Assembly: GCA_041184445.1 (NCBI GenBank)
Contig: JBEGJW010000001.1
Location: 1-60,724, forward strand
Direction of reading: 5' to 3'
From: Actinomycetota bacterium
Lineage (GTDB): Bacteria; Actinomycetota; Acidimicrobiia; Acidimicrobiales; Ilumatobacteraceae
DNA length: 60,724 nt
Below the pieces are notes generated by a model. The model made no database searches. It was not told the origin of the DNA and saw only the letters and a program-made list of their open reading frames with translations. Below, in pieces: positions 4,516 to 50,080 of the stretch. The first letter of the stretch is position 1; the number at the start of each line of letters is the position of its first letter. Made by a program: the position numbers and the translations under genes.

Positions 4516-5083
4516 TTTCGTTCATTCCCGCCTACGGATAGCTGTCGTAGTCCTTGCCATTAGCGCAGTGGGTGGATGGGTGTGGAGCAATACCAGCGGC
4601 ACCAAGGTTGATGCCGTTCTCACTACTCCAGGCGAAGTGCCGTACCCTTCGCTCGACACCAACGAACCCGTTGTTGGCAAACAGTTGCCTGTTGCTCAAT
4701 TAACCGATCTCGATGGAAAAGTTGTTGATCTGCAGAGTTTTGTTGGCTCACCATTGATTCTCAATTTTTGGTATTCCACTTGCGAACCATGTCGTCGCGA
4801 AATTCCCGCATTTGCACAGGCGCGCCTTGCGCACAGCGATATTCAGTTTGTTGGTTTCAACATGAACGACTCACCAGAAATGGCAAAAGCATTCGGTGAA
4901 AAATATGGCGTCAATTACCCCATCGTGTTTGATCAATCCGGAGCCGTCATTCGCGAACTTGGAATCGTTACCGCGCCGAGCACCCTGTTTATTGACAGTG
5001 CAGGAAACATCGTTGACCAGGTTGCAGGAGAAATCAGCTCCGACAAACTTGCATCACTCATTGCGCAATGGTTTACGTCGTAA
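4511..5083 (+). CDS. TlpA/ResA-family membrane-anchored thiol:disulfide oxidoreductase (thioredoxin fold)
   Basis: 190 aa with an N-terminal TM anchor (IAVVVLAISAVGGWVW) and the thioredoxin-like active site WYSTCEPCRREIP. The GTG start has no obvious SD. Confidence 0.85.
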   Translation: MPFVHSRLRIAVVVLAISAVGGWVWSNTSGTKVDAVLTTPGEVPYPSLDTNEPVVGKQLPVAQLTDLDGKVVDLQSFVGSPLILNFWYSTCEPCRREIPAFAQARLAHSDIQFVGFNMNDSPEMAKAFGEKYGVNYPIVFDQSGAVIRELGIVTAPSTLFIDSAGNIVDQVAGEISSDKLASLIAQWFTS

Positions 5084-5955
5084 TGATCGCCAACATCGTC
5101 ATCGAAGGCAACTTTGCTTACAGCTTCATGTTGGGCATGCTTGCAGCAGTAAACCCTTGCGGTTTTGTTTTGTTGCCTGCTTATTTGCTCTATTTCTTGG
5201 GAATTGATGGTGGTAATCACGGTGTTACACGAGCTCCGTTGCAACGTGCGTTGCGCGTAAGCGCTGCTGTTTCATCTGGGTTTCTTGCCGTGTTTCTTGT
5301 TGTCGGATCAATCTCACGACTGTTTACGCAATGGATTGAACTCCATGCCAAATACGCAGGGTTTGCCATTGGTATTGCACTGGTTGGTTTAGGAACCGCC
5401 ATGTTGCTTGGGTGGAAGCCATCGTTTGCAACCTCGCTTCCCGGCGCCAAGAAAGACCGCTCCACACGCGCGATGTTTGTCTTCGGAGTTGCATACGCAA
5501 TTGCCAGCATTGGCTGCACTATTGGGCTGCTTACTACAGCAATTCTTGGCTCTATCGGAACACACGGTTTCGTTTCTGGTGTCATCAGCATCGTCATGTA
5601 TGGACTGGGAATGTCGCTGCTTGTTACCGCACTTACCGTCACGCTTGCTGCAGCAAAAACAGGTGTGTCACGAATGTTAAAGCGCAGTCTTCGCTACGTC
5701 GACAAAGTGGCAGCGGGATTTATCGCAATTACCGGCGCATATCTCACGTGGTACTGGTACGGAGCCATTAGCGAGCGCGAATCGCTTGGCAACATCGTGT
5801 CCAATGTAGAAAATTGGCAGAACTCCGTTTCTTTGTGGCTACAAGAACAGGGCGCCTCGCGTCTTGCTGCGATGTGCGCACTGGTCATTGGTGTAGCGCT
5901 TGTATTGGTTGGTCTAACTCGAATGAAGCAACTACTCCGCAGGTCGCACCGCTAA
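5068..5955 (+). CDS. ccdA: Cytochrome c biogenesis thiol-reductant transporter CcdA/DsbD-family membrane protein
   Basis: Polytopic membrane protein with the conserved LAAVNPCGF motif and a second Cys (ASIGCT). It directly follows the TlpA-like gene. An alternative in-frame ATG at 5083 overlaps the upstream TAA (TAATG). Confidence 0.8.
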   Translation: MVYVVMIANIVIEGNFAYSFMLGMLAAVNPCGFVLLPAYLLYFLGIDGGNHGVTRAPLQRALRVSAAVSSGFLAVFLVVGSISRLFTQWIELHAKYAGFAIGIALVGLGTAMLLGWKPSFATSLPGAKKDRSTRAMFVFGVAYAIASIGCTIGLLTTAILGSIGTHGFVSGVISIVMYGLGMSLLVTALTVTLAAAKTGVSRMLKRSLRYVDKVAAGFIAITGAYLTWYWYGAISERESLGNIVSNVENWQNSVSLWLQEQGASRLAAMCALVIGVALVLVGLTRMKQLLRRSHR

Positions 5956-9486: not shown

Positions 9487-10208
9487 AACTGCTCCGTATT
9501 CAATTGGCATGCGAACTGCGTGTACTTGCACGAAACGGTGAGCAATTGTTGCTCATTCTTGGCATCCCACTGTTACTGCTTTCATTTTTCAGCAATGTTG
9601 ACATTCTCCCTACCTCCGGTCAGAGCAGCGTCAACTTCTTACTTCCGGGCATTGTTGCCTTGGCCATCATGTCCACTGCAATGGTCAGCCTTGGCATTGC
9701 CACTGGGTTCGAACGTTCATATCAAGTACTCAAACGACTGGGTGCAACACCACTAGGAGTTCCAAGGCTTGTATTTGCCAAAGCACTTTCGGTGCTCGTT
9801 GTTGAATTGGTACAGGTGATGCTGCTCATCGGTTTGGCACAAGCATTTGGTGCAGACCTAGCTGGGTTGAACATCGCAAAACTGGCTTTGGCAATCGCTC
9901 TAGGAACACTTGCCTTTTCTGGCGTGGGACTTTCCCTTGCCGGGCGCCTACGTGGCGAAATCAATTTGGCCGCCCAAAACGCCTTGTATTTAGTGCTACT
10001 TCTCATTGGTGGAATCGTGTTTCCTTTGCAGGAGTTTCCATCGTGGCTGCATTGGGTAGGTCGAATCTCCCCGTCTGGTGCTCTTGCCGACGTAATGAGA
10101 GATGTCTTTTCCGGAACGTCCGTTCACGGCGCATCCTCATTTGTAGTACTGCTGTGTTGGGCTGTTGCGGCACAACTCTCAGCCTTCACATTGTTCCGCT
10201 GGAACTAG
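9483..10208 (+). CDS. ABC-2 type transporter permease
   Basis: 241 aa, about 6 TM helices, translationally coupled to the preceding ATPase (ATGA overlap). Confidence 0.8.
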   Translation: MKLLRIQLACELRVLARNGEQLLLILGIPLLLLSFFSNVDILPTSGQSSVNFLLPGIVALAIMSTAMVSLGIATGFERSYQVLKRLGATPLGVPRLVFAKALSVLVVELVQVMLLIGLAQAFGADLAGLNIAKLALAIALGTLAFSGVGLSLAGRLRGEINLAAQNALYLVLLLIGGIVFPLQEFPSWLHWVGRISPSGALADVMRDVFSGTSVHGASSFVVLLCWAVAAQLSAFTLFRWN

Positions 10209-11059
10209 TTACTGCTGCTTTTCTCGTCGGTAACGGCGTAATTTGATTCTGTAAAGAAGTTTCCAATGAACCGCCTGAAGAAGATCACCACCACGATCGT
10301 CCACAAATAAATCGATCCACCAGTTTTCATAATTGCACCGGCAAGCTGCTGATCGGTGGTCACCGATAACCCCCACACGCGCACAGCAATGTCGTAATGC
10401 TTGTACACCGCACCATCGGCAAACGTGAGCCACGCGGCCGGAACGGTTGGAACTACCGACATGAGGAAGAGATAAATCATCTTGCCGCCATATCCCAAAT
10501 GGCGCGACCGATCTGGTCCACAAATTGGGAACCACATCAACAATGCCGATGTCACCACGAGGACATGCAGCGAATAATGCAACGGCCCATTAGAAACACT
10601 TCTGTTCACCATTTGTGGAATGTGTGTCACCATAATGACGCCATTAAAGAGCAGACCCGCAACAACTGGCTTGGTCATAAAGTTGACCACTTTGCGCGCG
10701 CGTACGCCTGCAAAAATGAGATCGTAGAGCCACAGTGGAGTTGCAATCAACATGAGTGGCGGCATGAAGTACGAATACAGCATGTGTTGAAACATGTGCA
10801 CCGAATACAAATATTCTTCCGAAATATCGTGAATCGGCCAGTCTGAGGCGATCCATAACAGCAGGGCCCCAACTATGAATGCCCACAATTGCTTTCGCGA
10901 GATTACGTTGCCGTGAGTTACAACGCGGGGTCCGATGACACGAATTGCATACACATAGCTCGCTACAACAGCGATGACCAATACCCACACTTCAATATGG
11001 AGTTGAAATCTCCACGGATCAGGATTCACCAGTGCGAACATATGTGGTTCGCTGATCAC
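10205..11059 (-). CDS. ctaG: Cytochrome c oxidase assembly factor CtaG (caa3-type, membrane)
   Basis: 284-aa polytopic protein that is the last gene of the cta operon. Motifs WPIHDISEEYLYSVHMFQHML and MVTHIP resemble the Bacillus-type Caa3_CtaG family. Confidence 0.75.
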   Translation of the reverse strand: MISEPHMFALVNPDPWRFQLHIEVWVLVIAVVASYVYAIRVIGPRVVTHGNVISRKQLWAFIVGALLLWIASDWPIHDISEEYLYSVHMFQHMLYSYFMPPLMLIATPLWLYDLIFAGVRARKVVNFMTKPVVAGLLFNGVIMVTHIPQMVNRSVSNGPLHYSLHVLVVTSALLMWFPICGPDRSRHLGYGGKMIYLFLMSVVPTVPAAWLTFADGAVYKHYDIAVRVWGLSVTTDQQLAGAIMKTGGSIYLWTIVVVIFFRRFIGNFFTESNYAVTDEKSSSN

Positions 11060-11068
11060 AATTTCAAG

Positions 11069-11368
11069 TTAAGAGAAAAAGTGGAAGGTCGCGAGAAAAA
11101 TTCCGTACACGGCGATGGCAAGGATGAGCCCCGCGTAGAACACCCACGAGAACAACTTATTGTCGAACTTCAAATGCATGAAGTAGCTCACAACAATGAC
11201 GAACTTGATTGTCATCATGATGAGCAGCGCAGGAAGGAAAAAGTGACCAAAGTCCACGTAATAGGTGGAAACTTCAAGAGCCGTAATCGCGGCAAGGATT
11301 GCTGCGATGCGGACGTAACCGGCATTTGACATGCCGTGTTCAGTTGTTGAGTGTGTCTCTGTTGTCAT
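11069..11368 (-). CDS. ctaF: Cytochrome c oxidase subunit IV (prokaryotic COX4/CtaF type)
   Basis: About 99 aa with 3 TM helices and the motif YFMHLKFDNKLFSW, typical of bacterial oxidase subunit IV. The start is taken at ATG 11368, directly after the ctaE stop at 11371-11373. Confidence 0.8.
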   Translation of the reverse strand: MTTETHSTTEHGMSNAGYVRIAAILAAITALEVSTYYVDFGHFFLPALLIMMTIKFVIVVSYFMHLKFDNKLFSWVFYAGLILAIAVYGIFLATFHFFS

Positions 11369-11370: not shown

Positions 11371-11967
11371 TCAGGCCGGGATGAGGTAGATAAGGGTGAA
11401 AATAATGATCCAAATGATGTCCACAAAGTGCCAATAGAGCCCGATCATTTCAACCGTTTCGGCTTTGCTGCCAGGAACCTTGGAACGCTTCATAATGCCA
11501 ACGATTGACATCAGCATGATGATTCCCACGGTGACGTGCACTCCGTGGAAACCGGTGAGGACGAAGAAGCTTGACGAAAACAGGCTGGTCGTGAATCCCA
11601 TACCCTCGTGGTAGAACGCTGTGAACTCATACACCTGACCGCCCACGAACGTAGCTCCAAGCAATGCGGTAACGGTGACCCACAAGTACGTGTTGCGATC
11701 ATCGCCCTTATGTGCGGCCGATACAGCGAGCACCATGGTGAGCGAGCTCATGAGCAACACGAAGCTGCTGACTGAGGTAAACGGAATATCGAATACTTGC
11801 GATGGACGTGGACCAGCACCCACGCGACCGCGGTACAACATGTAGGTAGAAATCAGTCCGCCGAACAACAAACATTCTGAACCAAGGAACAACCACATAC
11901 CGAGTTTGTTGTTGGACAAACCGGTGCTTGAGTGTGCTCCACCATCGGTGTGGCTATCTGAAGTCAT
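11371..11967 (-). CDS. ctaE: Cytochrome c oxidase subunit III
   Basis: LGMWLFLGSECLLFGGLI...FFVLTGFHGVHVTVG...LYWHFVDIIWIIIF are COX3 signatures. The start is set at ATG 11967, downstream of the ctaD stop at 11978. Confidence 0.9.
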   Translation of the reverse strand: MTSDSHTDGGAHSSTGLSNNKLGMWLFLGSECLLFGGLISTYMLYRGRVGAGPRPSQVFDIPFTSVSSFVLLMSSLTMVLAVSAAHKGDDRNTYLWVTVTALLGATFVGGQVYEFTAFYHEGMGFTTSLFSSSFFVLTGFHGVHVTVGIIMLMSIVGIMKRSKVPGSKAETVEMIGLYWHFVDIIWIIIFTLIYLIPA

Positions 11968-11977: not shown

Positions 11978-13954
11978 TCAGCCAACGTGAACCACATCCT
12001 TTGTTGTTGCAGGTGGATCGAAGTCATCATCAGGTGCTGTGCTTGGCTCAATCGCCCAGCCGTATGCACCGAACAACACAATCACACCACCAAAAATTGC
12101 GATTGGAATGGAATAGATCACGCCGAAAGCAATCACAGGCAAGCCAGCAGCAAGCACAATCGGCCAATACGAAGGTGACGGCATGTGAATGTGCGCATCA
12201 GCATTGTCTTCGAGTTCTTTCATGACCTGCTCTGCAGTTTTCACTTTCACCATTTGACCGTTGGCGTCTTCTTGATACTTACGGTGGAAGAATTCGTCAA
12301 GATGCGAAACAGTAGGAATGCTGTCAAAGTTGTGCTCTTTCGGAGGGTTGGATGTCATCCACTCCAGGCTGCGTGCGTCCCATGGGTCGAGCGGTGCAAC
12401 TTTGCCCTTGCGTGTGGTGATGACCACATTGATGAGGAACAACAACACTCCCGTTGTCAATACAAGCGATCCGATTGAAGCAATTCGGTTCCAAAAGCCC
12501 AGGTTAAAGAACCCTTCACCTGCACGAGCTTCGGTCCACTGGTACATACGACGCGGTTGGCCTTGCAGACCAAGAATATGCATTGGTCCGAACGTCATGT
12601 TCATACCAATGACCATCATCCAGAAGTTCCACGTACCCAATTTTTCATTAAGCAACTTGCCGAACACTTTTGGCCACCAGTAATAGAAACCAGAGAACAA
12701 ACCAAAAACTGCGCCGCCAAATAGCACGTAATGGAAGTGAGCAACGATGTAGTAGGTGTCAGTTTGCTGTGTGTCAGATGGAGCAATCGAGTGTGTTACA
12801 CCCGACAATCCACCAATGGTGAACAGCACAATAAGCCCGACCGCAAACTTCATCGCCACAGTGAACTGCAACTTTCCACCCCAAATCGTCATCGTCCAGT
12901 TCACGATCTTCACACCAGTTGGAACGGCGATCGCCATTGTTGAGATGGAGAAGACTGCAACCGATACTGGTCCAAGTCCAGAAGCAAACATGTGGTGAGC
13001 CCACACACCCCAACCAACGAATCCAATGGCTGCTCCCGAGAACACCACGAACGGATAACCGAACAATGGCTTACGGGAGAACACTGGAAGTACTTCAGAG
13101 ATAATTCCGAAGCTTGGAAGAATCAAGATGTATACCTCTGGGTGACCGAAGATCCAGAAGAGGTGCTGCCACAACAATGGATCAGCGCCTGCGGAAACGT
13201 CGAAGAACGTTGCTCCGAAGTTGCGCTGGAATGACAGCAGGAACAACGCGACGGTGATTACTGGAACTGCGAACAAAAGCAGGAACTGCACGACCAACTG
13301 CATCCAGGTGAAGATCGGCATGCGCATGAGCTTCATTCCAGGAGCGCGCATGTTGAGCACGGTGGTGATGAGGTTTACTGCGCCGGCAAGTGAGGCAATA
13401 CCTGCAAGTTGAAGTCCAAGAATCCAGAAGTCAATTCCGTGACTTGGTGAGAAAATTGGTCCCGAGTTCGGTGCGTACATGAACCAACCACCGTCGGCCG
13501 CCCCACCAAGGAACCAGGACAAGTTGAGGAAAATTCCACCAAACAACAACGCCCAGAAACTGAAGGCGTTGATGCGTGGAAACGCAACGTCGCGTGCGCC
13601 AATTTGTAGTGGGATGAAATAGTTAGCAAGACCCGCTGCCATTGGCATGACAAACAAGAACACCATGGTTGTTGCATGCATGGTGAACATTTGGTTGTAC
13701 AAGTCTGCGTTCAGCACTTTGCCGTTTGGTGCAGCGAGTTGTAAACGAATAAGTACGGCTTCGAGTCCACCAACGATGAAGAAGAACAACGCAGTGGCGG
13801 AATACATGATGCCGAGTTTTTTGTGGTCAACCGTGAACAACCACGATTTCCAACCGGTTGTTGCTACCGGACGCTTCAACGCTCCAAGTGATGAACTTGG
13901 TGTCGCGCTTACCAACGCTTCAGTGCTGGTTATCGATCGCTCAATGATGGCCAT
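11978..13954 (-). CDS. ctaD: Cytochrome c oxidase subunit I with a C-terminal two-helix extension
   Basis: All canonical ligand motifs are present: MFTMHATTM, WIFGHPEVYILILP, WAHHMF, VAHFHYV. At 658 aa it is long because of a C-terminal hairpin, HMPSPSYWPIVLAAGLPVIAFG...GAYGWAIEPS. Confidence 0.97.
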   Translation of the reverse strand: MAIIERSITSTEALVSATPSSSLGALKRPVATTGWKSWLFTVDHKKLGIMYSATALFFFIVGGLEAVLIRLQLAAPNGKVLNADLYNQMFTMHATTMVFLFVMPMAAGLANYFIPLQIGARDVAFPRINAFSFWALLFGGIFLNLSWFLGGAADGGWFMYAPNSGPIFSPSHGIDFWILGLQLAGIASLAGAVNLITTVLNMRAPGMKLMRMPIFTWMQLVVQFLLLFAVPVITVALFLLSFQRNFGATFFDVSAGADPLLWQHLFWIFGHPEVYILILPSFGIISEVLPVFSRKPLFGYPFVVFSGAAIGFVGWGVWAHHMFASGLGPVSVAVFSISTMAIAVPTGVKIVNWTMTIWGGKLQFTVAMKFAVGLIVLFTIGGLSGVTHSIAPSDTQQTDTYYIVAHFHYVLFGGAVFGLFSGFYYWWPKVFGKLLNEKLGTWNFWMMVIGMNMTFGPMHILGLQGQPRRMYQWTEARAGEGFFNLGFWNRIASIGSLVLTTGVLLFLINVVITTRKGKVAPLDPWDARSLEWMTSNPPKEHNFDSIPTVSHLDEFFHRKYQEDANGQMVKVKTAEQVMKELEDNADAHIHMPSPSYWPIVLAAGLPVIAFGVIYSIPIAIFGGVIVLFGAYGWAIEPSTAPDDDFDPPATTKDVVHVG

Positions 13955-13966: not shown

Positions 13967-15214
13967 TTACTTCAGCGTCAACAGGTAGGCGACAAGCTTT
14001 TCAATGTCGGATTCGGTGAGCCCAAGGTTTGGCATTCCGCGATACTTGCCACCCGTGCTTGCGAGCAAGGCAGGGTTCGAGTACATCGGCTTCATGCCTG
14101 GAGCATTGCGCAACCAACCACGTAAATCAGTTTGATTCAAACACTCTTCGCTCACGCCACTCAAATACTTCGCACCGAACGACTCGGAATCGGCACCCCA
14201 CACCTCTTTGCGGCACGTCTTATTCAACAAATCGAATGTTGCGCCAGCGAACGTATTGCGGCTCATGAGGTGCGACAAGTTTGGTGCAGCACCCGAAACG
14301 ATGTTTTCGTCAGGCGCCGCGATTACTGGAGTTCCATCGGCACGCTTCATGCCGTTCACTTGGTGACATCGCGTGCACTGATTCATAAACACCGCTTCGC
14401 CCTCTTTGGCAAGCGTGTTCTCTGCAGGCGAGGTGTATGGCTTCAACTGATTAGCCACCCACTTTGCGAAGTCGGCTTTACTCAATGCAATTGCTTCCAT
14501 GCGCATGTTGGCGTGCGAAAGACCACAGAACTCGGTGCATTGACCCGCATAGATTCCTGGCTTGTCAGCTTCGATTCTGTTCAAGTGAACGCGGCCCGGA
14601 ACAGCATCGCGTTTACCGTTCAGAGCAGGAATCCAATATGAGTGAATAACGTCGCGGCTGGTTTCGCGCAACAACACTTTTGTACCTGCAGGGATAACTA
14701 ATTGTCCAGAAGTGATAATTGGCTGGGTAATGCCATATTCGTTTTGAACTGGATAGTCGTATTCCCACCACCACTGCTGACCAGTGACGTTGATAATCAT
14801 TTCGGTATCGCTGGTCTTTGCAAGATCAAATACCGTGCGGAACGTAAACACACCAACAACAGTCAAAATAAGCGCAGGAATAATTGTCAGAGTGATTTCA
14901 AGTGCAGGGTTACCGTGCGACTGATGCGGAATCGGTTGGCCTTTGTCACGGAATTTAATGACGGCTGTAATTACCACTGCCGTAACAATGACGCCAATAA
15001 TTCCGGCAACCGCAAAAACTGGTTTCTGCAGGTTGTCAATAATTTTGGCGTTTGGCCCCTTTGGCTTCCACGTGTCCTGAGGTGCATTCGTTGCACAACC
15101 TGCAAGGAACATGGTGGTTGCAAAACCGGATACCGCTCCAATTACTCGACGACGCATACTGGCAAGCCTATTGACGCCATTGGTTTTGTGTTCAGTTGTG
15201 TTTTGGTGTCTCAC
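13967..15214 (-). CDS. ctaC: Cytochrome c oxidase subunit II fused to a C-terminal mono-heme cytochrome c domain (caa3-type)
   Basis: CuA site HSYWIP...CTEFCGLSHANM. C-terminal CXXCH (CTRCHQ) with a distal Met region. Lipoprotein-like N-terminus (FLAGCA). The GTG start overlaps the upstream stop (GTGA). Confidence 0.93.
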   Translation of the reverse strand: MRHQNTTEHKTNGVNRLASMRRRVIGAVSGFATTMFLAGCATNAPQDTWKPKGPNAKIIDNLQKPVFAVAGIIGVIVTAVVITAVIKFRDKGQPIPHQSHGNPALEITLTIIPALILTVVGVFTFRTVFDLAKTSDTEMIINVTGQQWWWEYDYPVQNEYGITQPIITSGQLVIPAGTKVLLRETSRDVIHSYWIPALNGKRDAVPGRVHLNRIEADKPGIYAGQCTEFCGLSHANMRMEAIALSKADFAKWVANQLKPYTSPAENTLAKEGEAVFMNQCTRCHQVNGMKRADGTPVIAAPDENIVSGAAPNLSHLMSRNTFAGATFDLLNKTCRKEVWGADSESFGAKYLSGVSEECLNQTDLRGWLRNAPGMKPMYSNPALLASTGGKYRGMPNLGLTESDIEKLVAYLLTLK

Positions 15215-16323
15215 GGCACAATCACCTCAATGCTTTGTCCGGCAAGTCCTGGAACGGTCAACGTGAACGGCTTTCCCGCTACTGCTGGCTTTGGGATATT
15301 CAGGATGAGCATTTGCTCTGAACCCTGAGGAATGAGTTGGGTGCACTGCACCACATCTTCGTTCACACCAGCGGTGACCATTTTGCTTCCCAAACTTGCA
15401 ACCAGTCGATATTCCCCATCGCTTTTGTTACGGAACACAATGTTCGTTGGATTGGAGCGCGGAACCGTGATGGACTTTTGTTCTCCCGCAATTCCCTGCA
15501 CAATTGCAACGAGCTTTCCATCCACGAGATCGATATGGGTGTCCACGCTTGCCGTCGCCGACACACCACCTAATGGAAGCTTGTCGAAGTGTTCAGACTT
15601 TTCCGCTCCACATTCTTGATGCAGATAGTGACCTTCTTCTTGTGCAAGCACGAGTTCTTCACGAACACCTGCCCCTGCGCCAGCAATTCCAGCAGCAACA
15701 ATTCCGACAGCACCAATAACGCAAATACCAGTAACCAGCCCGCGCTTCAGGTTTGGACGAATGGAAAACAACACGCCGGCTGCAAGCACTAGCGAACCGA
15801 GAACAATAAACGAAGTTGCACCAACGCTCTTGTTCACTGCAAGGGTGATGCGTGAGAATGAGAAAATCACCACTCCCAGACCCACCGCAGCAAGAACTGG
15901 GAATTCAATTGGGTTGAGCAGGCGCTTACGCAACGATGCGTTATAGGCAACGTCGCTTGATGCTCGCTCGGACCAGCTGAGTACGGTCCATTCAATGAGC
16001 GCGGCGAGTAAGGCAACGATTCCGAACAGCGTCACCACAGGCGAAGTGATGGTTCCAACAAGCAACAGCGTTGCACCAACGGCAGCGATCAGTGGCCAAA
16101 TCGATCCTGTTGGTGCAGCAGTTGTTGCTGCAACACCATCTTCGTCTTTTGCGCCATCACGGGTAGAGAGCATTAAGGCCGTGAGTAATCCAGTTGCAGC
16201 CACAAGACCCAACAGTGCCGTTGCGCCTATAGCCGACTCGCCAATCAGAAACATATAGATGGCAAATGAAATTGCTCCAAGGAAGCTGACCCCGAAGAAG
16301 TATTTAGATCCAGTTGAAAACAT
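15211..16323 (-). CDS. Polytopic membrane protein with a C-terminal cupredoxin-like domain lacking a CuA site (degenerate oxidase subunit II-like)
   Basis: About 7 TM helices, then a beta-rich domain. ITVPRSNPTNIVFRNKSDGEYRLV aligns to CtaC LVIPAGTKVLLRETSRDVIHSYW, but no H..CxxxC..H..M motif is present. The N-terminal part has an SxWP two-helix motif (GSIWPLIAAVG...LIEWTVL). The start is taken at ATG 16323 (MFSTGSKYFFG), since the ORF-track start overlaps the upstream gene. Confidence 0.6.
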   Translation of the reverse strand: MFSTGSKYFFGVSFLGAISFAIYMFLIGESAIGATALLGLVAATGLLTALMLSTRDGAKDEDGVAATTAAPTGSIWPLIAAVGATLLLVGTITSPVVTLFGIVALLAALIEWTVLSWSERASSDVAYNASLRKRLLNPIEFPVLAAVGLGVVIFSFSRITLAVNKSVGATSFIVLGSLVLAAGVLFSIRPNLKRGLVTGICVIGAVGIVAAGIAGAGAGVREELVLAQEEGHYLHQECGAEKSEHFDKLPLGGVSATASVDTHIDLVDGKLVAIVQGIAGEQKSITVPRSNPTNIVFRNKSDGEYRLVASLGSKMVTAGVNEDVVQCTQLIPQGSEQMLILNIPKPAVAGKPFTLTVPGLAGQSIEVIVP

Positions 16324-16331
16324 TGCGCTAC

Positions 16332-16946
16332 CTATTTCTGCACGTACACGACGAACCACAACGCGATAAACGTTGCAGTGAGGAAGTACCAATACAAGGA
16401 ATGTGCAGTGACCACTGCGCGATCAGCAACTCGACCACCCAACACTCGAAATGCGGCTACAAACGAAAACGCCACTCCAGTGCAAATAAGTAGGAGCATC
16501 GTTCCCGTAATTGCGTAAAACATTGTCTGATAAGCGCCATCAGCAAGCACAGCTTCCATTTGCTTATAAATGGCTACTTGCGCATTGATTGCAGCAATGC
16601 CAATGAGACCGGTAATGAACAAAGCGAGCGTGGTGTGCTGAGAATCTTTGCGTGTTGCGGAATACACAGCCCATTGACCCATAATTGCGGCAATGACCAT
16701 GGTGATGGCAAGCGTGTTTGTTGCAACTTCTGGAATCTTGAGATCGGCAGGAAGCCAATCGTGAATCATTTTTCCGCCCTTGCCGGCGCGCAACGGAGAT
16801 GCATCACGGAACTTAAACCACACGGCCAACATGCCAAACATCAACATGGTTCCAGCAGCAACAACTGAGCCCGTTGCGATAAACAGCGGGTGTCGTGCAG
16901 CAGTCGTTGGACCTGCTGGCAATACGCGATCAACTGCGGTGGTCAT
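16332..16946 (-). CDS. Heme-copper oxidase subunit III-like membrane protein (divergent paralog)
   Basis: 204 aa, about 5 TM helices. FYAITGTMLLLICTG and SLYWYFLTATFIALWFVVYV align with CtaE FFVLTGFHGVHVTVG and GLYWHFVDIIWIIIFTLIYL. ATGA overlap with the upstream gene. Confidence 0.65.
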   Translation of the reverse strand: MTTAVDRVLPAGPTTAARHPLFIATGSVVAAGTMLMFGMLAVWFKFRDASPLRAGKGGKMIHDWLPADLKIPEVATNTLAITMVIAAIMGQWAVYSATRKDSQHTTLALFITGLIGIAAINAQVAIYKQMEAVLADGAYQTMFYAITGTMLLLICTGVAFSFVAAFRVLGGRVADRAVVTAHSLYWYFLTATFIALWFVVYVQK

Positions 16947-18448
16947 TGTGCACCCCCATCAATCCAAGGATTTCCTGCAACGCGTTCTCCCGTTGCAAAA
17001 CTTTTCACAGCAATTGCAATTGCTGCAATTACACACACTGTGAACAGCCCGTGCCCTGCTGCTGAAACCGTATTCCACAATCGTGCAGGTCCGGAATAAT
17101 CAAAGTCTTTAACTGAATCTGCTTGTTGATCAGCAAAGCCAGCGATGTACATCGGAAGTGCAGCAAACACGGTTGCAACGAAACCAAGTGCACCAATTCC
17201 AACAACTGCTTTTGCTGGCAACATGCGACCCCACAGAGTCGGACCCCAAAACGCAATAGCTGCCCAGGCAACAAGCACCGTCCCGTAGCTGATGTAGACG
17301 AGCACGGCTTCTTCAAATACGGTTCCCGAAAGATTTGCACTCGAGATCAATTGCACAGCATTACCAAGCATTGCGGTGAGAATCATTCCGCCACCAAGAA
17401 ACGCTGGGACGAACGGTGCGATCATTTTGATCGAATCAGATTTCAATGCCAGCAATGCAAGGCCAAGTACTACGACAACGCCGAGAATTGGCAGCAAGTT
17501 AAACAGTGCGTATGGCACGAAGCTTTTCGCTTTGTCTGACAATGTCCCAGTCCATGCAAAACCATGCACGTTTTGTGTAACGGATCCGAGAAGCGCAACG
17601 GAGATAAGTCCAACGCCAATAAAAACACCACCACGTAGCGGTTGAGTTCTGCGTGCAACTGCTGGTGCAAGTTCCGCAAGTATTCCAACTGCCGGAATGA
17701 TGTACAGGAACGTTTGTGGTTGCGACATTGACCAGCCAAGCCACTTGATAATGCCCATATTCCCGTCAAAGGCAACGCGTGTGTAGTGATGATCAACCGC
17801 TAGATAAATCAAAGTTCCCAGCGTTACGGGAAGTGTGAGTACCAAACTTGATGAGCCAATAAGTGCAGACCATGAAAACGACGGAACGTCTGCCAAATCT
17901 GTACCGGCAGTTCGTGCGCTCAACACCGTTGCAACAACGCTGACCGCAGAAGCAAGTAGACCCACAATGACGAGTGCGAGACCCAAGAGATATAGGTCAA
18001 CCATTTGTGCGTTTCCACCGCCTGGTCCACCGTTTGCAACAAGCGAACCGACCACCAATGAGCCACCAATTGCCCAGAGAAAGAAGCCCATCATGGCGTT
18101 GCGAGCAAACATGACCGATCGCGATCCAACTTGAGTTGGTGTAATCGCAAGTGAGAGGCCAAGCATCAATGGAATCATCACGCCAAATGACGCGAGTGTC
18201 TTCGACGCAGCAAATAACTGCGTCATCATTCCTTCATTGAATATCAGTGTTTTGCTGTCGATTCTTTCGAATCCCAGCAGCGCACCAACTCCGACAAATG
18301 CGAGTAGCCAGAGTGCGGCAGTACCAATGAAGAGTCGACCGATTCGCTTGTGATCGGTGGTGGTGAGCCAAGCACCCACCGAACCCAGAAATCCTGAGTC
18401 GGCAGTGGCCTCGGCACCCAGTGTGGATGGCAGATTGACCGTGGTCAT
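16943..18448 (-). CDS. Heme-copper oxidase subunit I-like 12-TM protein lacking the heme and CuB histidine ligands
   Basis: The COX1 N-terminal signature WLTTTDHKRIG is present, and the protein is collinear with the CtaD encoded in this window. Ligand motifs are substituted: LFAASKTL (vs MFTMHATT), WSMSQPQTFLYIIP (vs WIFGHPEVYILILP), TQNVHGF (vs WAHHMF), EAVLVYI (vs VAHFHYV). Confidence 0.7.
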   Translation of the reverse strand: MTTVNLPSTLGAEATADSGFLGSVGAWLTTTDHKRIGRLFIGTAALWLLAFVGVGALLGFERIDSKTLIFNEGMMTQLFAASKTLASFGVMIPLMLGLSLAITPTQVGSRSVMFARNAMMGFFLWAIGGSLVVGSLVANGGPGGGNAQMVDLYLLGLALVIVGLLASAVSVVATVLSARTAGTDLADVPSFSWSALIGSSSLVLTLPVTLGTLIYLAVDHHYTRVAFDGNMGIIKWLGWSMSQPQTFLYIIPAVGILAELAPAVARRTQPLRGGVFIGVGLISVALLGSVTQNVHGFAWTGTLSDKAKSFVPYALFNLLPILGVVVVLGLALLALKSDSIKMIAPFVPAFLGGGMILTAMLGNAVQLISSANLSGTVFEEAVLVYISYGTVLVAWAAIAFWGPTLWGRMLPAKAVVGIGALGFVATVFAALPMYIAGFADQQADSVKDFDYSGPARLWNTVSAAGHGLFTVCVIAAIAIAVKSFATGERVAGNPWIDGGAQ

Positions 18449-18512: not shown

Positions 18513-19442
18513 CTAGCGAAGTAAAACGTCCACCGTGAGCGCAACAAAAATTGCCGTGACGTAAGTAATGGAGAAGGTAAACAGTCGCATCGACCGCTTT
18601 TCCGAAGGGTCACTTCCCAGCTGGACAGCCCCGATGACAAAAGCCACGCCAAATACCAACGCTGTAACTCCGTAAATCCAGCCGAGTTCGGCAATAGGAA
18701 TGAGGACGAGGGTGGAAATGGTGAGCAGCAAGGCATAGACCGTCATCGACCGAACCGTTCGCTCTAAAGAGACCACCACCGGCATCATCGGCACACCCGC
18801 TGCTTTGTAGTCGTCTGCGTGTCGAATCGCCAGCGCCCAAAAGTGTGGAGGCGTCCAGAGGAAAATGACTACAAACAGAACAACTGGTGCCCAGCCCAGT
18901 GAATTTGTTACTGCGGCCCAACCAACCAGCACCGGCATCGCCCCGGCTGCGCCACCGATCACGATGTTTTGTTTACTGGTGCGCTTTAACCACAGTGAAT
19001 AAACAAACACATAAAACAATGTTGCGGTCACAGCCAAAATTGCCGCAAGCAAATTTGCTCCAGCCCACAACACACAAAAGGCAATGATTTCAAGTGCAAT
19101 TGCAAAAATCATTGCTGCTCGCGGCGTCAAAGCGCCCGTTACCAGTGGACGATTTTGCGTACGGACCATGAGTTTGTCAATGTCACGATCGATGTACATA
19201 TTGATGGCATTCGCTCCACCGGCGGCAAGAGTTCCTCCAACAAGAGTGACCACCATTAATTGGATTGACGGCCAACCCTGATTCGCAAGCACCATCGTTG
19301 GCACGGTGGTAACCAGTAACAATTCGACAACTCGAAGTTTCATCAATGCGATGTAGGAACCGATCCGAGACGACGGTGCACCACCACGGGATTTGTGACT
19401 GAAAAACCGCGATGGGATAACAGGTCGAACGTCGAGAGCCAC
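18513..19442 (-). CDS. ctaB: Protoheme IX farnesyltransferase (heme O synthase)
   Basis: UbiA-family prenyltransferase. [39 protein letters not shown] and [12 protein letters not shown] are CtaB/CyoE motifs. Confidence 0.93.
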
Positions 19443-19532
19443 AGGCTTAGGCTACGGCGCTTAAAGAGTTGCTACCAATCGGAGCATTGCCGCACGAGCA
19501 GAACACACCATGATTCACGGCAGAATGTCCAT

Positions 19533-19850
19533 GTGCCAATACACCGATTGTCGAACACCGATGTACGACCAATTGACGTTGTTGACCCCGGCACCGATAT
19601 TGCGCCAGATACCGACCGCCCTTGGATTGTGCTCGTGTGGAATGACCCAATCAATTTGATGTCGTATGTGACTTTGGTCTTACAAAAGTTGTTTGGATAC
19701 AGCCTGGAAAAAGCAACGGAATTAATGCTCGATGTCCACAACAAAGGGCGTGCTGTGGTTTCTTCCGGTACTCGCGAGCGTGCCGAATTTGATGTGTATC
19801 GACTTCATGAACACGGTTTATGGGCAACGATGCAACGAGAGGACGCGTAA
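19533..19850 (+). CDS. clpS: ATP-dependent Clp protease adaptor ClpS
   Basis: [46 protein letters not shown]...GLWATMQ is canonical ClpS. The start is uncertain. GTG 19533 is chosen because the ORF-track start at 19395 overlaps ctaB head-to-head by 48 nt. TTG 19548 is also possible. Confidence 0.85.
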
Positions 19851-19852
19851 TC

Positions 19853-20353
19853 GTGGCTCGAAAAAATAAAGGGCCAGTAACACGAATCGATGCGTCGTCG
19901 TACTCGCTCAACATTGACGCAAGTGACCGCACAACATTGAACGCTCTGCTTGATCAATTGCGAGATGTATTAATGAATGATTCATCAAGTGACATCGCAC
20001 GCCGTCTCTTCCCTGCTGCTTATCACCAAGACGAACAACACGAACAGGAATATCAGCGACTAATGCGCGACGAATTGCTGTCGTCGCGCCTTGCTTCGCT
20101 CTCCCTCACATCAACGCTGCTTGAGCGCGAAGCATCTGCCGACAAGGTTGTGGTCACTGCCGACGAACTCGATGCACTGATGCGCTCCATCAATAGTCTG
20201 CGACTCGTCCTTGGCACCCTGCTCGATGTTGACGAGGATGAGTTTGAAGCAGGCCTCAATGAAGACGACCCCGCATATGGCCAATATCAGCTGTATTCAT
20301 ATCTGGGTTGGCTTTTGGACTGGGTAGTGACTGTCCAAACCGAATTCAATTAA
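19853..20353 (+). CDS. DUF2017-family protein (conserved ClpS neighbour in Actinomycetota)
   Basis: Acidic ~166-aa protein immediately after clpS (GTG 19853, 2 nt after the clpS stop). The motif LFPAAYHQDEQHEQEYQRL...DELDALMRSINSLRLVLG fits my recollection of DUF2017. Assigned mainly by synteny. Confidence 0.6.
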   Translation: MARKNKGPVTRIDASSYSLNIDASDRTTLNALLDQLRDVLMNDSSSDIARRLFPAAYHQDEQHEQEYQRLMRDELLSSRLASLSLTSTLLEREASADKVVVTADELDALMRSINSLRLVLGTLLDVDEDEFEAGLNEDDPAYGQYQLYSYLGWLLDWVVTVQTEFN

Positions 20354-21580: not shown

Positions 21581-21964
21581 TTACTCAACTGTCAAAACAA
21601 ACACGACCTCTTCCGAGACGTGACTTTCAATATCGAACGTTCCAGCATTTGATGCAACAAATTCGATCACTGATTGTTGACCCTGTGCCATTTCACCTGT
21701 TGTTAAGTCATACCCGTGAACATGAATTTCATCTGGACCATTTGGATTAATGAAGGTGATTCGCACAGATGAACCGAGTGGCACAGTCTGCATCATGTCT
21801 GGGCCAGTGTTTTCACCAACAATCAAGCTGATTTCGACAACGTTTCCAGCGGCCACTGCTGTATCTGTCGTTTCATTTGCAACGGTGGTGTCCGATGACG
21901 ATGAGGACGAACATCCGGCAAGAAGCGCAACGGTTACCGACATACCAATAAGTATTTTTTTCAT
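21581..21964 (-). CDS. Small lipoprotein, beta-sandwich/cupredoxin-like, function unknown
   Basis: Lipobox signal MKKILIGMSVTVALLAGCSSS, a Ser/Thr linker, then a beta-rich domain with EIHVHGYD and FDIESH (possible metal ligands). Its start overlaps the pyrE stop by 4 nt. Confidence 0.55.
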   Translation of the reverse strand: MKKILIGMSVTVALLAGCSSSSSSDTTVANETTDTAVAAGNVVEISLIVGENTGPDMMQTVPLGSSVRITFINPNGPDEIHVHGYDLTTGEMAQGQQSVIEFVASNAGTFDIESHVSEEVVFVLTVE

Positions 21965-32544: not shown

Positions 32545-34833
32545 TTGCGCATGAATACGACTACCGCATCTTCAGAGACTACGGCTGTAAAGCGCAAGGG
32601 TCTTAAGCCATACCAATTGTCCATCGCGCTCGGCGTTGGTATCGCCACGTTCACCATGGTCTCGGGAGTTATTCCGCACCTCGTGCATTGGCACAATGAT
32701 TCGCCAATTCAGCGCGAAGTCTTCGAAGGCATTCCTGGCTATTTGCAAATTGCTTTCTACACCATCATTCCCGCGCTGTTGGTGTGGGGTTCATTGCAGT
32801 TTGCTGATCGCATTCGCAACTGGGAGCGCGGCGCACCTGATCGCCGCAAGACAACGAAAAAGAATTTCAAGCAACGTTTAGCTGACTACCGCGCCGGTGT
32901 GTACATGCGCACACTGCTTCGCGACAGCGCTGCCGGCCTCATGCACTCCATGATGTACTTCGGTTTCTTGGTGCTTCTTGGTGTTACCACCGTCCTCGAG
33001 GTTGATCATCAATTGCCACCAGCGTTGAAGTTCCTACACGGTGACGTGTACCGCGCGTATGCGGCAGTTGGCGACATTGCAGGAATCGTGTTTACCACTG
33101 GTGTGATTTGGGCAATCATCCGCCGCTATGTACAGCGCCCGTACCGCATTCGTATTAAGTCCAAACCTGAACATGCAATTGGTCTCGGCGTGTTGCTGGC
33201 AATTGGTGTAACTGGCTTTGGATCGGAAATGTTCCGCATTGCTGAATCTCAAGCTGCCGGCATCAACATGGACCACGAAAAGTGGAGCGTGCTTGGTTAC
33301 CCACTCGCACAACTCGTAAATGGCTGGTCAGAGTCAACGCTTAACACGATGCACCAGGTGCTGTGGACATCGCACGTACTTGCGTTCATTGGTTTCTTGA
33401 TTATTTTGCCGATCACCATGTTGCGTCACATGTTTACGTCGCCATTGAACATGTACTTGAAAGATCGTGAACGACCAAAGGGCGCAATGAAGGCGATGCC
33501 AAACCTCACCGAGACATCGCTCGAAACGTTTGGTGCACATGTTGTTGAGGACTTCACGTGGAAGCAACTCCTCGATCTCGATGCCTGCACCATGTGTGGC
33601 CGCTGCACCAGCGTGTGCCCAGCACACGCAACAGGCAAACCACTTGACCCACGCGAAATTGTGTTGAAGAGCGGCGAAGTAATGGCCGCAACTGCAACCC
33701 ATGCACGCGGAGGAAAAGTAACGCCGCCCCTCAGCGTTGACAGTGAAATCACCATTTCTGCAAACTCATTGTTCGAGCGCATTTCGAGCGAAGAAATTTG
33801 GGCGTGCACATCGTGCAAGGCATGCGATGAGATCTGCCCAGTGAATATCGAAATTCTGGACAAGATCTTGGACATGCGTCGTTACCTCTCGCTCATGGAA
33901 AGCGATTTCCCTGCAGAACTTGGCAACGCGTACCGAGCAATGGAAAACCAAGGCAACCCGTGGGGAATGAGCCAGAGCGATCGTGGCGAATGGGCAAAAG
34001 ACCTTGACGTCACCGTGCTCGACCCAGGTGCTGCATTCAACCACGAGTATTTGTACTGGGTTGGTTGCGCAGGAAGCTTCGACGATAAGAACAAGAAGGT
34101 CACGCAATCGATGGCCAAGTTGTTGAAGCGCGCCGGCATTGATGTGGCAATTCTTGGACCGAGCGAAATGTGCACGGGCGACAGTGCTCGCCGCAGCGGT
34201 AACGAATACCTTTTCCAAATGTTGGCTATGCCAAACATTGAGATGCTGAACGGCATGGGTGTGCGCAAAATCATTACGCAGTGCCCACACTGCTTCAACA
34301 CACTTGCTAACGAGTACCCGCAGTTTGGTGGAACGTACGAAGTAATTCACCACTCGCAGTTGCTTGAACACCTCATCGATTCAGGCAAGCTCGACATCAG
34401 TGACGCAACGCTTGAAGAGCGCATCACGTATCACGACTCGTGCTACCTCGGTCGTCACAACGACGTCTACATGGCACCTCGAAACGTTGTTGCATCCATT
34501 AAGGGAGTTGACGTTGTTGAAATGCCACGCAACGGCACAAAGGGTATGTGCTGTGGTGCTGGTGGAGCTCGCATGTGGATGGAAGAAACCATCGGAACCA
34601 AGGTGAACGACGAGCGCGCTGCTGAGGCGATTTCAACAGGTGCTTCACGAGTCGCAACCGCATGTCCGTTCTGTTACATCATGTTGGACGACGGCGTAAA
34701 GGGTGCTGGCAAAGAAGAGCACGAAGTGAAAGTTGCTGACATCTCCATTCACCTGCTTGATGCAATTGAAAATGGTGAGCGACTTCGTGCTGAAAGTTCA
34801 GCACCACTCAGTGCGCCGGTTGCCGGCGAGTAA
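32545..34833 (+). CDS. Membrane-anchored Fe-S oxidoreductase (NarI/DsrM-like membrane domain, 2x[4Fe-4S] ferredoxin domain and HdrD-type CCG domains)
   Basis: 762 aa. The N-terminus has about 5-6 TM helices with conserved His. Cluster motifs CTMCGRCTSVCP and CTSCKACDEICP are followed by two Cys-rich CCG-like modules (CPHCFNTL ... CCGAGG ... CPFCYIML). The architecture matches my recollection of the mycobacterial Rv0338c class. Confidence 0.75.
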   Translation: MRMNTTTASSETTAVKRKGLKPYQLSIALGVGIATFTMVSGVIPHLVHWHNDSPIQREVFEGIPGYLQIAFYTIIPALLVWGSLQFADRIRNWERGAPDRRKTTKKNFKQRLADYRAGVYMRTLLRDSAAGLMHSMMYFGFLVLLGVTTVLEVDHQLPPALKFLHGDVYRAYAAVGDIAGIVFTTGVIWAIIRRYVQRPYRIRIKSKPEHAIGLGVLLAIGVTGFGSEMFRIAESQAAGINMDHEKWSVLGYPLAQLVNGWSESTLNTMHQVLWTSHVLAFIGFLIILPITMLRHMFTSPLNMYLKDRERPKGAMKAMPNLTETSLETFGAHVVEDFTWKQLLDLDACTMCGRCTSVCPAHATGKPLDPREIVLKSGEVMAATATHARGGKVTPPLSVDSEITISANSLFERISSEEIWACTSCKACDEICPVNIEILDKILDMRRYLSLMESDFPAELGNAYRAMENQGNPWGMSQSDRGEWAKDLDVTVLDPGAAFNHEYLYWVGCAGSFDDKNKKVTQSMAKLLKRAGIDVAILGPSEMCTGDSARRSGNEYLFQMLAMPNIEMLNGMGVRKIITQCPHCFNTLANEYPQFGGTYEVIHHSQLLEHLIDSGKLDISDATLEERITYHDSCYLGRHNDVYMAPRNVVASIKGVDVVEMPRNGTKGMCCGAGGARMWMEETIGTKVNDERAAEAISTGASRVATACPFCYIMLDDGVKGAGKEEHEVKVADISIHLLDAIENGERLRAESSAPLSAPVAGE

Positions 34834-49196: not shown

Positions 49197-49983
49197 TCAC
49201 CTCCAATGCCACTGCTCGATATGCCTTTGCCCCAGTTGAGTTTGGGTCAAAGGTAGTAATTGGCTTGCCGTGTGAAGGCGCCTCTGCCAGGCGCACATTG
49301 TGCGGAATAACGGCTTGACACACCTTGTCGCCGAAGTGTTCGCGTACTTCGCTGACTACATCACCGGAAAGTTTGGTGCGGGTATCGAACATGGTGCAGA
49401 TAATGCGACTGACGCCTAGGCCTGGGTTGAGGTTTTTGCTTACCAAATCCACGTTACGAAGCAACTGACCAAGACCTTCCAAGGCGTAGTACTGGCATTG
49501 AATCGGCACGATGACTTCTCGGGCGGCAGTAAGTCCGTTCACCGTAAGGAGCCCAAGTGATGGCGGGCAGTCGATCAGCACATAGTCGAACTGGTCAATA
49601 ATGGCTTCAATGGCTTTTTTGAGGCGGGTTTCTCGGCCCATTGCCGGAACGAGCTCAATTTCGGCACCTGCTAGGTCGAGGTTCGAAGGTGCAACAAAGA
49701 GGTTCTTTACCGCTGTTGGTGCCAGACAATCTTCAAGGGGAGTCTCGTGTAGCAACACGTCATAAATGCTCGTTTCCATGTCGCGGGTATTGAGACCCAG
49801 GCCTGTGGAGGCGTTTCCTTGTGGGTCAAGGTCAATCAGCAGCACCCGATAACCCTGCTCAGCAAGGCAGGCACCAAGGTTGATGGTGGTCGTGGTTTTG
49901 CCAACTCCGCCTTTTTGGTTCGCCATAGCAATGATCCGCGGCGTTGGGTACGGACCAGTAGGGGTGGTAACTGGCGTGTTCAT
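49168..49983 (-). CDS. parA: Chromosome partitioning ATPase ParA/Soj
   Basis: IIAMANQKGGVGKTTTTINL is a deviant Walker A; LLIDLDPQGN and IDCPPSLG follow. The start is set at ATG 49983 (MNTPVTT...). The ORF-track N-terminal extension merely reads through the parS region. Confidence 0.93.
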   Translation of the reverse strand: MNTPVTTPTGPYPTPRIIAMANQKGGVGKTTTTINLGACLAEQGYRVLLIDLDPQGNASTGLGLNTRDMETSIYDVLLHETPLEDCLAPTAVKNLFVAPSNLDLAGAEIELVPAMGRETRLKKAIEAIIDQFDYVLIDCPPSLGLLTVNGLTAAREVIVPIQCQYYALEGLGQLLRNVDLVSKNLNPGLGVSRIICTMFDTRTKLSGDVVSEVREHFGDKVCQAVIPHNVRLAEAPSHGKPITTFDPNSTGAKAYRAVALEVSGGAQVGTR

Positions 49984-50053: not shown

Positions 50054-50080
50054 GTTCTGGTTCGGGTGACTTGGCGCTCG

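Follow-up and report, generated by a model that had tools for sequence, protein, structure and literature searches.

Ligand-less homologs of oxidase subunits I, III and IV encoded between ctaB and a caa3 oxidase in Acidimicrobiia-like Actinomycetota

The 60,724-nt stretch of Actinomycetota bacterium DNA analyzed here (Ilumatobacteraceae; assembly GCA_041184445.1, contig JBEGJW010000001.1, positions 1 to 60,724; hereafter the window) carries on its minus strand one tightly packed string of genes, ctaB-gI-gIII-gX-ctaC-ctaD-ctaE-ctaF-ctaG, in which three uninterrupted reading frames that we call the ghost genes gI, gIII and gX separate the heme O synthase gene from the genes of a working caa3 oxidase. 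The ghost genes are expressed-type genes under purifying selection, and their products are homologous to subunits I, III and IV of the oxidase. In a wide and ancient Acidimicrobiia-like group they are a fixture of the nine-gene arrangement. Together they almost certainly encode a functional but catalytically inert membrane module derived from an oxidase. The set lacks the canonical ligands of heme a, heme a3, CuB and CuA, and therefore cannot carry out O2 reduction of the heme-copper oxidase type.

An initial annotation of this DNA, made from its letters alone, had placed three consecutive intact frames between ctaB and the caa3 genes, named them paralogs of subunits I, III and II, and described two of their junctions as translationally coupled. 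The frames are indeed consecutive and uninterrupted, and both overlaps are present in the sequence, ATGA between gI and gIII (16946-16943) and GTGA between gX and ctaC (15214-15211). Coupling at the second junction depends on where ctaC starts: its GTG is preceded by a GAGGTG motif ~7 nt upstream, but an alternative ATG at 15157 would open a classic lipoprotein signal (MRRRVIGAVSGFATTMFLAGC), which makes coupling of gX to ctaC likely and not certain. The start codon favored for gX in Table 1 is the one that gives the length found in its homologs, and base composition is uniform, the ghost genes being indistinguishable from their neighbours. Current annotation calls the three products ‘cbb3-type cytochrome c oxidase subunit I’, ‘cytochrome c oxidase subunit 3’ and ‘hypothetical protein’, and such names make the oxidase repertoire of abundant freshwater and marine Actinobacteria look larger than it is. 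Homologs of all three proteins are plentiful in public databases.

Table 1. The ctaB-to-ctaG gene string of the window and the segments of gX (TM, transmembrane; aa, amino acids)
Feature	Position	Strand	Description
ctaB	18513-19442	-	heme O synthase; opens the operon; 64 nt upstream of gI
gI	16943-18448	-	ligand-less COX1 (subunit I) homolog, 501 aa, 12 TM helices
gIII	16332-16946	-	divergent COX3 (subunit III) homolog, 204 aa; ATGA-coupled to gI
gX	ORF 16392-15211; likely start ATG 16323	-	third ghost gene; 370 aa from the likely start
gX residues 1-121	15961-16323	-	four TM helices homologous to CtaF (PF12270)
gX residues 122-232	15628-15960	-	conserved loop and three more TM helices; no known family
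gX residues ~255-370	15214-15561	-	predicted cupredoxin-fold domain without copper ligands; lineage-specific
ctaC	13967-15214	-	bona fide subunit II, CuA ligands and fused cytochrome c domain (caa3 type)
ctaD	11978-13954	-	bona fide subunit I, all ligands; C-terminal 2-TM extension resembles subunit IV
ctaE	11371-11967	-	bona fide subunit III
ctaF	11069-11368	-	subunit IV, caa3/Bacillus type (COX4_pro)
ctaG	10205-11059	-	Caa3_CtaG assembly factor; closes the operon

The gI protein matches Pfam COX1 (PF00115) over model positions 1-433 of 436 (1.6e-29; 103.5 bits against a gathering threshold of 34.8) and aligns collinearly with the CtaD of the window over residues 26-495 (BLASTP, 25% identity, E 4e-29), as the initial annotation had proposed. 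Comparison of the two families with hhalign gave a probability of 100% (E 1.5e-38), whereas the score of gI against TIGR02891, 131.6 bits, lies far below the equivalog cut-off of 670.75. An AlphaFold2 (AF2) model of gI with pTM 0.78 matches CtaD of mycobacterial and corynebacterial bcc-aa3 supercomplexes and other A-family oxidases at a Foldseek TM-score of ~0.8; owing to the shallow alignment, four of the five models lacked confidence.

On this shared fold the catalytic residues have been replaced. The six canonical His columns (two for the low-spin heme, one for the high-spin heme and three for CuB) read S, Q, Q/V, N/H, V and V in gI. Specifically, the heme a His of helix II has become Ser (MFTMHATT in CtaD, LFAASKTL in gI); the change from FGHPEVY to MSQPQTF exchanges a CuB His for Gln, the channel Glu (E286) for Gln and the cross-linked Tyr for Phe; and in helix X, where VAHFHYV reads EAVLVYI, HxH has become VxV. 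These replacements had been read correctly from the sequence, but the alignment given at the time for the WAHH motif is ambiguous. In the family-wide register (WAHH = WAQP = VTQN) the WAHH of CtaD corresponds to VTQN, whereas BLASTP and one hidden Markov model (HMM) alignment place His295 of gI opposite one of the two CuB His, three residues away from its family-wide position. His295, which sits one turn (within 1-3 residues) from the former CuB His pair, is conserved in the clade of the window and not outside it, and we did not accept it as a retained CuB ligand, the family-wide register putting it off the ligand columns, though its assignment stays ambiguous. In addition, the D-channel Asp (D132) is Ser, the heme-propionate Arg pair (R481/R482) is deleted, and the column equivalent to the K-channel Lys (K362) is V in the family-wide alignment, with no basic residue conserved there.

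What gI has retained lies elsewhere. Positions at least 80% conserved across the family are mostly Gly, Pro and Trp, together with loop motifs inherited from COX1 (N-terminal TTDHKxIGR, PLQVGA..AFPR, TT....R.PG..P.F.WS, YW.PK and a C-terminal DPW). When placed on the AF2 helix map with the N-in topology of COX1, ~27 of 47 conserved positions fall on the cytoplasmic face and ~8 on the outer face, and no buried charged residue is conserved throughout the family in the family-wide alignment. This pattern suggests that shape and surfaces are what selection has preserved in gI: neither the redox core nor the P-side surface on which subunit II docks is left, while the cytoplasmic-face motifs persist, which fits a scaffold and not catalysis or transport. 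The clade of the window additionally has invariant features of its own (ANGGPGGG, VDHHY, TQPQTF, GTVFEE, H295, H466 and His220), and a polar Gln/Glu cluster occupies its former binuclear centre (Q243, Q245, T246, Q291, H295 and E379/E380).

The gIII protein is a more divergent homolog of its counterpart, with 35.3 bits against Pfam COX3 (PF00510; 1.4e-8, gathering threshold 23.8), so that both ghost subunits named by the initial annotation as COX1- and COX3-like exceed the Pfam cut-offs. Alignment to the CtaE family by hhalign gave a probability of 96% (E 6e-9), and the His motifs GFHGxH and YWHFVD are replaced, as had been noticed. Its top NCBIfam match is aa3_CtaE_Actin (3.5e-13), and of the 30 COX3 chains in the PDB matched by the gIII profile only actinobacterial CtaE aligns over the full length; the QoxC chain that is the top match of the operon's real CtaE is not among the PDB matches of gIII.

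The third ghost protein did not turn out to be the subunit II paralog that had been proposed. BLASTP of gX to CtaC was non-significant, hhalign gave a probability of 0.3%, a profile search found no PDB match of this kind, and none of 23 members matched COX2 (PF00116 or PF02790) in Pfam or NCBIfam at E ≤ 10. Instead, a gX-core profile built from diverse members matches the CtaF chains of four solved supercomplexes (9wcx_m, 5.7e-6; 8hcr_H, 1.4e-5; 7q21_F, 2.2e-5; 6adq_H, 2.5e-4), aligning gX 6-122 with CtaF 5-126, that is, with the entire CtaF. PF12270 is matched directly by 11 of 24 diverse gX members (best 4.4e-6), the window member alone being sub-threshold (E 3.1). By these profile comparisons the first ~120 residues of gX, which carry an S-x-W-P motif before the third helix, are homologous to actinobacterial oxidase subunit IV (CtaF, PF12270). 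A relationship of gX to Caa3_CtaG, CtaB, CtaE or the operon's own CtaF was rejected (hhalign probabilities at most 0.8%). Some gX members weakly matched Trp_oprn_chp, DUF3040 and the SCO2097 family, but these matches were judged hydrophobic-segment noise, fading with a broader alignment while PF12270 strengthened.

Helices 3 and 4 of gX also align with the C-terminal two-helix extension of the window's CtaD (gX 67-115; hhalign probability 82%, E 1.1e-5). That extension (residues 573-637; 11978-12270) itself matches PF12270 at 9e-6, and an extra 2-TM feature of COX1 of this type has been discussed as ancestral (PMC8239418). Many distant gX orthologs (for example L111 2810-3664 and L115 5662-6516) have a conserved LG(Y/W)KGG(V/I)GDH(V/F)GY between helices 1 and 2, which the gX of the window lacks.

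Helix 4 of gX is followed by a strongly conserved loop, EW..W..RAS.D...N...R.R...P.E.P, and then by three further helices. E111, W112, W117, D124, N128, R132, P138, P142, S157, R158, G219 and R221 are conserved columns of the broad alignment; residues 122-232, the loop and these helices, have no match in Pfam, NCBIfam or the PDB. Beyond them, a cupredoxin-type beta sandwich is predicted for residues ~260-370 (AF2 pLDDT 80-88), with Foldseek matches to 4hcf Cupredoxin_1 (5e-5), auracyanin and amicyanin, and to bo3 subunit II only at 1e-3 with a root-mean-square deviation of 16. A cupredoxin-like end is thus predicted, and a CuA centre absent, as initially described; the alignment to CtaC quoted in support could not be reproduced, and the domain occurs in only part of the family. 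gX has no copper-ligand set, neither H..CxxxC..H..M nor any other His/Cys/Met site; the only such residues that are invariant are H232, C238 and C327, and the two Cys may form a disulfide. The positive-inside rule predicts an N-in, C-out topology, which would place the cupredoxin-fold domain outside the cell. In ~35 metagenome loci the gX ortholog is only 250-290 aa long, lacks the domain and is followed directly by ctaC, so that the domain lies outside the conserved gX core; family members range from 250 to 390 aa, with or without it. Origin of gX by fusion of CtaF to CtaC is possible, since the CtaC precursor combines three hydrophobic segments with a cupredoxin as the latter part of gX does.

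Around the ghosts, ctaB is a heme O synthase gene and ctaC to ctaG encode a normal caa3-type oxidase set. The ctaB product matches the NCBIfam heme o synthase model (1.3e-118) and Pfam UbiA (1.3e-65). CtaC scores 2.5e-55 against TIGR02866 CoxB, above the cut-off, matches Pfam COX2 and Cytochrom_C, and carries both H..CxxxC..H..M and CxxCH, while CtaD passes the equivalog cut-off of TIGR02891 (4.1e-206; 685.5 bits against 670.75). CtaE matches Pfam COX3 (3.8e-19) and CyoC/QoxC-like NCBIfam models, with QoxC 6kob_C as its top PDB match (1e-41), and the operon's own CtaF and CtaG match PF03626 (1.8e-10) and PF09678 (6.2e-44), respectively.

The arrangement is no local oddity. When one genome per GTDB species was scanned with a pattern, 77 loci came to light with gI identities of 41-96%, the large majority labelled Ilumatobacteraceae, Acidimicrobium/Acidimicrobiaceae, Acidimicrobiales or Actinomycetota (freshwater acIV-type metagenome-assembled genomes, MAGs); the few labelled ‘bacterium’, Bifidobacterium or Kapaibacterium are taken to be mislabels. 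The order ctaB-gI-gIII-gX-ctaC-D-E-F-G holds in all 77 as far as the contigs extend. A metagenome scan seeded with 7 sequences of a distant gI subfamily added ~59 ghost loci with the same nine-gene order from marine, soil and freshwater contigs, once ~20 of the 80 returned loci had been set aside as ordinary oxidases. In both locus sets ctaB lies directly upstream of gI wherever the contig extends that far, and the ghost reading frames are intact in ~129 loci, the nine-gene order recurring throughout these at GC contents of 0.39-0.75. Among 1.84 billion representative proteins, a gI profile matched 3,484 at E ≤ 1e-3 and 286 at E ≤ 1e-30; among the best 150, every full-length protein lacks the binuclear-centre ligands, and of the distant relatives only P0431 is labelled Acidimicrobiales.

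Ligands conserved at shifted positions would have told against the reading of gI as ligand-less, but in a census of gI relatives the CuB and heme a3 ligands were kept in 0 of 235; the register of His295 is ambiguous. Gln is the majority residue at the positions of CuB-His1, E286 and CuB-His2. Both low-spin heme His are kept by a minority, 5 of 59 metagenome loci and 13 of 106 representatives, and since none of these relatives keeps the binuclear ligands, the binuclear centre was probably lost first and the low-spin heme later. Low-spin His were seen in L095, L096, L107, L135, L143, P0399, P0401, P0421, P0450 and P0455, from all of which the entire binuclear centre is gone; four of these loci (L095, L096, L135 and L143) have the same operon arrangement, and the contig of L107 ends just after gI. 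Judging from the retained His pair, this subfamily may still bind one heme.

Nei-Gojobori comparison of the window with nine relatives (dS 0.4-1.4) gave dN/dS ratios of 0.06-0.09 for gI, 0.05-0.09 for gIII and 0.04-0.09 for gX, next to 0.01-0.05 for ctaC and ctaD and 0.03-0.07 for ctaB. The ghost proteins change at ~2-3 times the rate of the real subunits (mean distance 1.2 vs 0.37-0.76). These values bear on whether the ghosts are merely decaying duplicates or annotation artefacts without function, as loss of all catalytic ligands would lead one to expect of pseudogenes and as the fusion of the CtaB C-terminus to ghost COX1 in one public gene call (P0467) might hint. Degraded orthologs with dN/dS near 1 were not what we found: the frames are intact in ~129 loci under strong purifying selection, new motifs are conserved, translational coupling is present and in base composition the ghosts do not differ from their neighbours. 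Decay is refuted by the data on selection and synteny, and we regard it as having next to no chance of being correct. This agrees with the initial annotation, which had argued against pseudogenes and for a redox-inactive, oxidase-like membrane module with a new role; the paralogs of subunits I and III are real, intact and ligand-less, and such a module with a secondary role is the reasonable reading. Two irregular loci were seen: the P0467 fusion looks like a frameshift or assembly error, and in a MAG locus (L015, 9491-9761) a 270-nt gap separates gI from gIII, with no gX match before the locus end. Both may be sequencing artefacts or rare real disruptions.

To ask which proteins change together, we compared branch rates of all nine proteins over 56 loci, using one neighbor-joining topology with 81 branches, per-protein branch lengths obtained by non-negative least squares from Kimura distances, and Spearman rho of the residual rates. 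The strongest partner of gI was ctaB (rho 0.45, p 2e-5), and this link held at rho 0.40-0.72 over five variants of the analysis (all branches, long branches only, p-distances and two independent locus sets). The ghosts covary with one another (gI-gIII 0.36, gI-gX 0.30, gIII-gX 0.26), as do the real subunits (ctaC-ctaD 0.56, p 4e-8; ctaC-ctaF 0.48; ctaD-ctaF 0.34), whereas between gI/gIII/gX and ctaC/D/E/F rho ran from -0.16 to +0.19 with no significant value among the 56 loci. Other neighbouring pairs do not covary (gX-ctaC -0.02, ctaF-ctaG 0.03), so adjacency alone does not explain the gI-ctaB link. This is moderate evidence that the ghost proteins are a second covarying group, apart from the real oxidase subunits, and that gI is linked to ctaB.

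A ligand-less COX1-like gene near ctaB was reportedly described in Acetobacter by Matsutani et al. 2014 (BBA 1837:1810), the source that others cite for it. According to the account in PMC10715153, the product of this gene of the Acetobacter ctaB cluster, a ‘deranged COX1-like protein’, lacks all metal ligands and was proposed to stabilise CtaB in a structural role. The likeness to gI is plain, a COX1 homolog without metal ligands beside ctaB, but on that description Acetobacter is an alphaproteobacterium that has lost its cytochrome c oxidase, so that the gene looks like the relic of a lost operon, and it is a single gene, whereas here a complete caa3 operon adjoins and the set has three genes including subunit III- and IV-like proteins. 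The initial annotation's remark that no function is described for such a set therefore needs amending for the subunit I homolog, in view of that account; for the ghost family itself our full-text literature searches found no description, and a selected set of three genes that occurs class-wide and includes a novel 7-TM fusion of subunit IV appears to be undescribed.

With a probability of roughly 0.4, the reading that we rank first is that the ghost module and CtaB act together in supplying heme O/A or in the biogenesis of the oxidase. It ranks first because a dead subunit I apparently stands beside ctaB in two lineages, one without an oxidase (on the published account of Acetobacter) and one with a complete oxidase, and because of the rate covariation. 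The three proteins would assemble as an inert, oxidase-shaped membrane complex that acts with CtaB instead of being built stoichiometrically into the working oxidase. Apo-subunit I is the natural recipient of the products of CtaB and CtaA, and a permanent ‘dummy’ assembly of these three subunits could dock CtaB and make it more stable or active. Such an assembly might in addition be a platform on which heme O/A is made and handed over to nascent CtaD.

Several observations weigh against a partnership with CtaB. Operon position and the tight coupling to ctaC would suit accessory subunits of the oxidase equally well, and ctaA is found neither in the operon nor in the window. No residue suited to heme binding is conserved family-wide, which leaves the heme-carrier version without a ligand. 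The covariation method is crude and the ghost distances, at ~1.2, are near saturation; shared recombination tracts of the neighbours ctaB and gI could contribute to the signal; and across variants the links of gIII (rho 0.06-0.54) and gX (0.12-0.23) to ctaB are weak.

The ghosts could instead serve the caa3 oxidase, or a supercomplex, as a structural partner, either a pseudo-protomer beside CtaCDEF or an adaptor docking caa3 to a bc-type complex, the adaptor being what is left of an ancestral actinobacterial aa3 whose supercomplex-forming surface was kept after a Bacillus-like caa3 took over catalysis. We find this somewhat less likely than a role with CtaB. It draws on the shared operon and the GTGA overlap of gX with ctaC, on the match of gX to CtaF of bcc-aa3 supercomplexes, on the leaning of gIII towards actinobacterial CtaE (aa3_CtaE_Actin) and on the mycobacterial and corynebacterial CtaD that head the Foldseek matches of gI, while the real subunits lean towards the Bacillus type (CtaE to QoxC/CyoC, ctaF as COX4_pro, and Caa3_CtaG). 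There is also precedent, since in the part of PMC10715153 concerned with a ‘deranged’ bc1 complex dead respiratory subunits are proposed to be retained for structural reasons. What speaks against it is that the ghosts show no rate covariation with CtaC/D/E/F, although those four covary mutually, that they evolve ~2-3 times faster than the real subunits, and that genes for a bc complex were not found in the window. A separate origin is not established either, as gI and the real CtaD rank the subunit I chains of the PDB almost alike; the subunit III and IV evidence, at the level of sequence, suggests descent of the ghost set from an ancestral actinobacterial aa3, but given these near-identical rankings the ghosts may also have arisen by an old duplication within the operon. 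A new activity in the old shell, with the gI cavity binding a non-redox cation, a lipid or quinone or a non-canonically liganded heme and serving as ion or proton conduit, sensor or carrier, strikes us as improbable. The conserved polar lining of the former binuclear site in the window's clade, the Gln majority at the CuB-His1, E286 and CuB-His2 positions across the family, the minority that keeps the low-spin His pair, and clade-invariant features that otherwise lack an explanation (His220, His466 and the ANGGPGGG loop) would all fit such an activity, yet no charged or ligand-type intramembrane residue is conserved family-wide, the D-channel Asp and the Glu are lost, and the K-channel Lys column holds no conserved basic residue.

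Among characterized systems, the actinobacterial aa3 of the bcc-aa3 supercomplex (6adq, 7q21, 8hcr, 9wcx) is a close one, and its chains are matched by the gI and gIII profiles as well as by that of the gX N-terminus. gI shares its 12-TM fold, gIII like actinobacterial CtaE has 5 TM helices, and the gX N-terminus like actinobacterial CtaF has 4. Unlike that enzyme, the ghost set is without heme and CuB ligands, cross-linked Tyr, D- and K-channel residues, Arg pair and CuA subunit, and whereas actinobacterial CtaF is a stand-alone protein of ~140 aa on a catalytic aa3 core, gX fuses subunit IV to three helices with or without a cupredoxin domain. With blue-copper proteins of the Cupredoxin_1 type (4hcf, auracyanin, amicyanin) and with subunit II, gX would share the predicted fold and a predicted extracytoplasmic place after a membrane anchor, but it has neither a His/Cys/His/Met nor a CuA motif and no sequence similarity to CtaC. 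The cNOR, qNOR, eNOR, bNOR, sNOR, gNOR and nNOR families likewise have a divergent subunit I without the active-site Tyr, in some cases with a CuA-less cupredoxin subunit; these are enzymes that keep both hemes and a three-His (or His2Asp) metal site, whereas the ghost family has no binuclear-centre ligands (PMC11214002). The survey of new heme-copper families in which they appear contains only enzymes keeping hemes and the metal site (PMC11214002).

Heme-copper oxidases are among the best-studied membrane enzymes, and even so the route of heme O/A from CtaB and CtaA into subunit I is unclear. If gI docks CtaB, it would show which surfaces of subunit I are recognised by the heme-delivery machinery, the conserved, selected, cofactor-less core near ctaB being a natural experiment. 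The ghost module is also an unusually complete bacterial multi-subunit pseudoenzyme complex, with three dead subunits kept together over deep time. In its widest form, the proposal would make the three-protein ghost oxidase an obligatory partner of heme O synthase throughout the lineage, from marine low-GC to soil high-GC members, and thereby a new kind of respiratory-chain biogenesis machinery, a pseudo-substrate complex that scaffolds cofactor synthesis. It may be what survives of an ancestral actinobacterial aa3 that lost its catalytic role to a Bacillus-type caa3; we put this forward only tentatively.

Outside the string, a ClpS-like ORF (assigned by eye, with no family-library scan) overlaps a DUF2017 gene (PF09438, 8.3e-27) at 19395-20353 on the plus strand, and as this pair diverges from ctaB, the cta operon begins with ctaB. 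Some 2 kb further upstream (21581-21964, minus strand) lies a gene for a small predicted lipoprotein of 127 aa with a signal ending LAGC, HVHGY and ESH motifs and a weak multicopper-oxidase/cupredoxin match (PF07731, 3e-4); from these motifs it could be a copper-handling protein for the oxidase. Two plus-strand genes are without a Pfam match, that at 40978-42996 (672 aa) at E ≤ 1e-5 and that at 5068-5955 (295 aa) at E ≤ 1e-3. The plus-strand gene at 32545-34833 encodes a 762-aa protein in which a NarI-like membrane domain is fused to 4Fe-4S dicluster domains and two CCG (HdrD-like) domains and which, by its domain content, looks like a DsrMK/HmeCD-type membrane oxidoreductase. The neighbourhood of the chromosomal replication origin spans 48240-59844, with parB, parA, jag and yidC on the minus strand and dnaA (53433-54953), dnaN, recF and gyrB on the plus strand, which puts the cta operon ~35-40 kb away from the origin.

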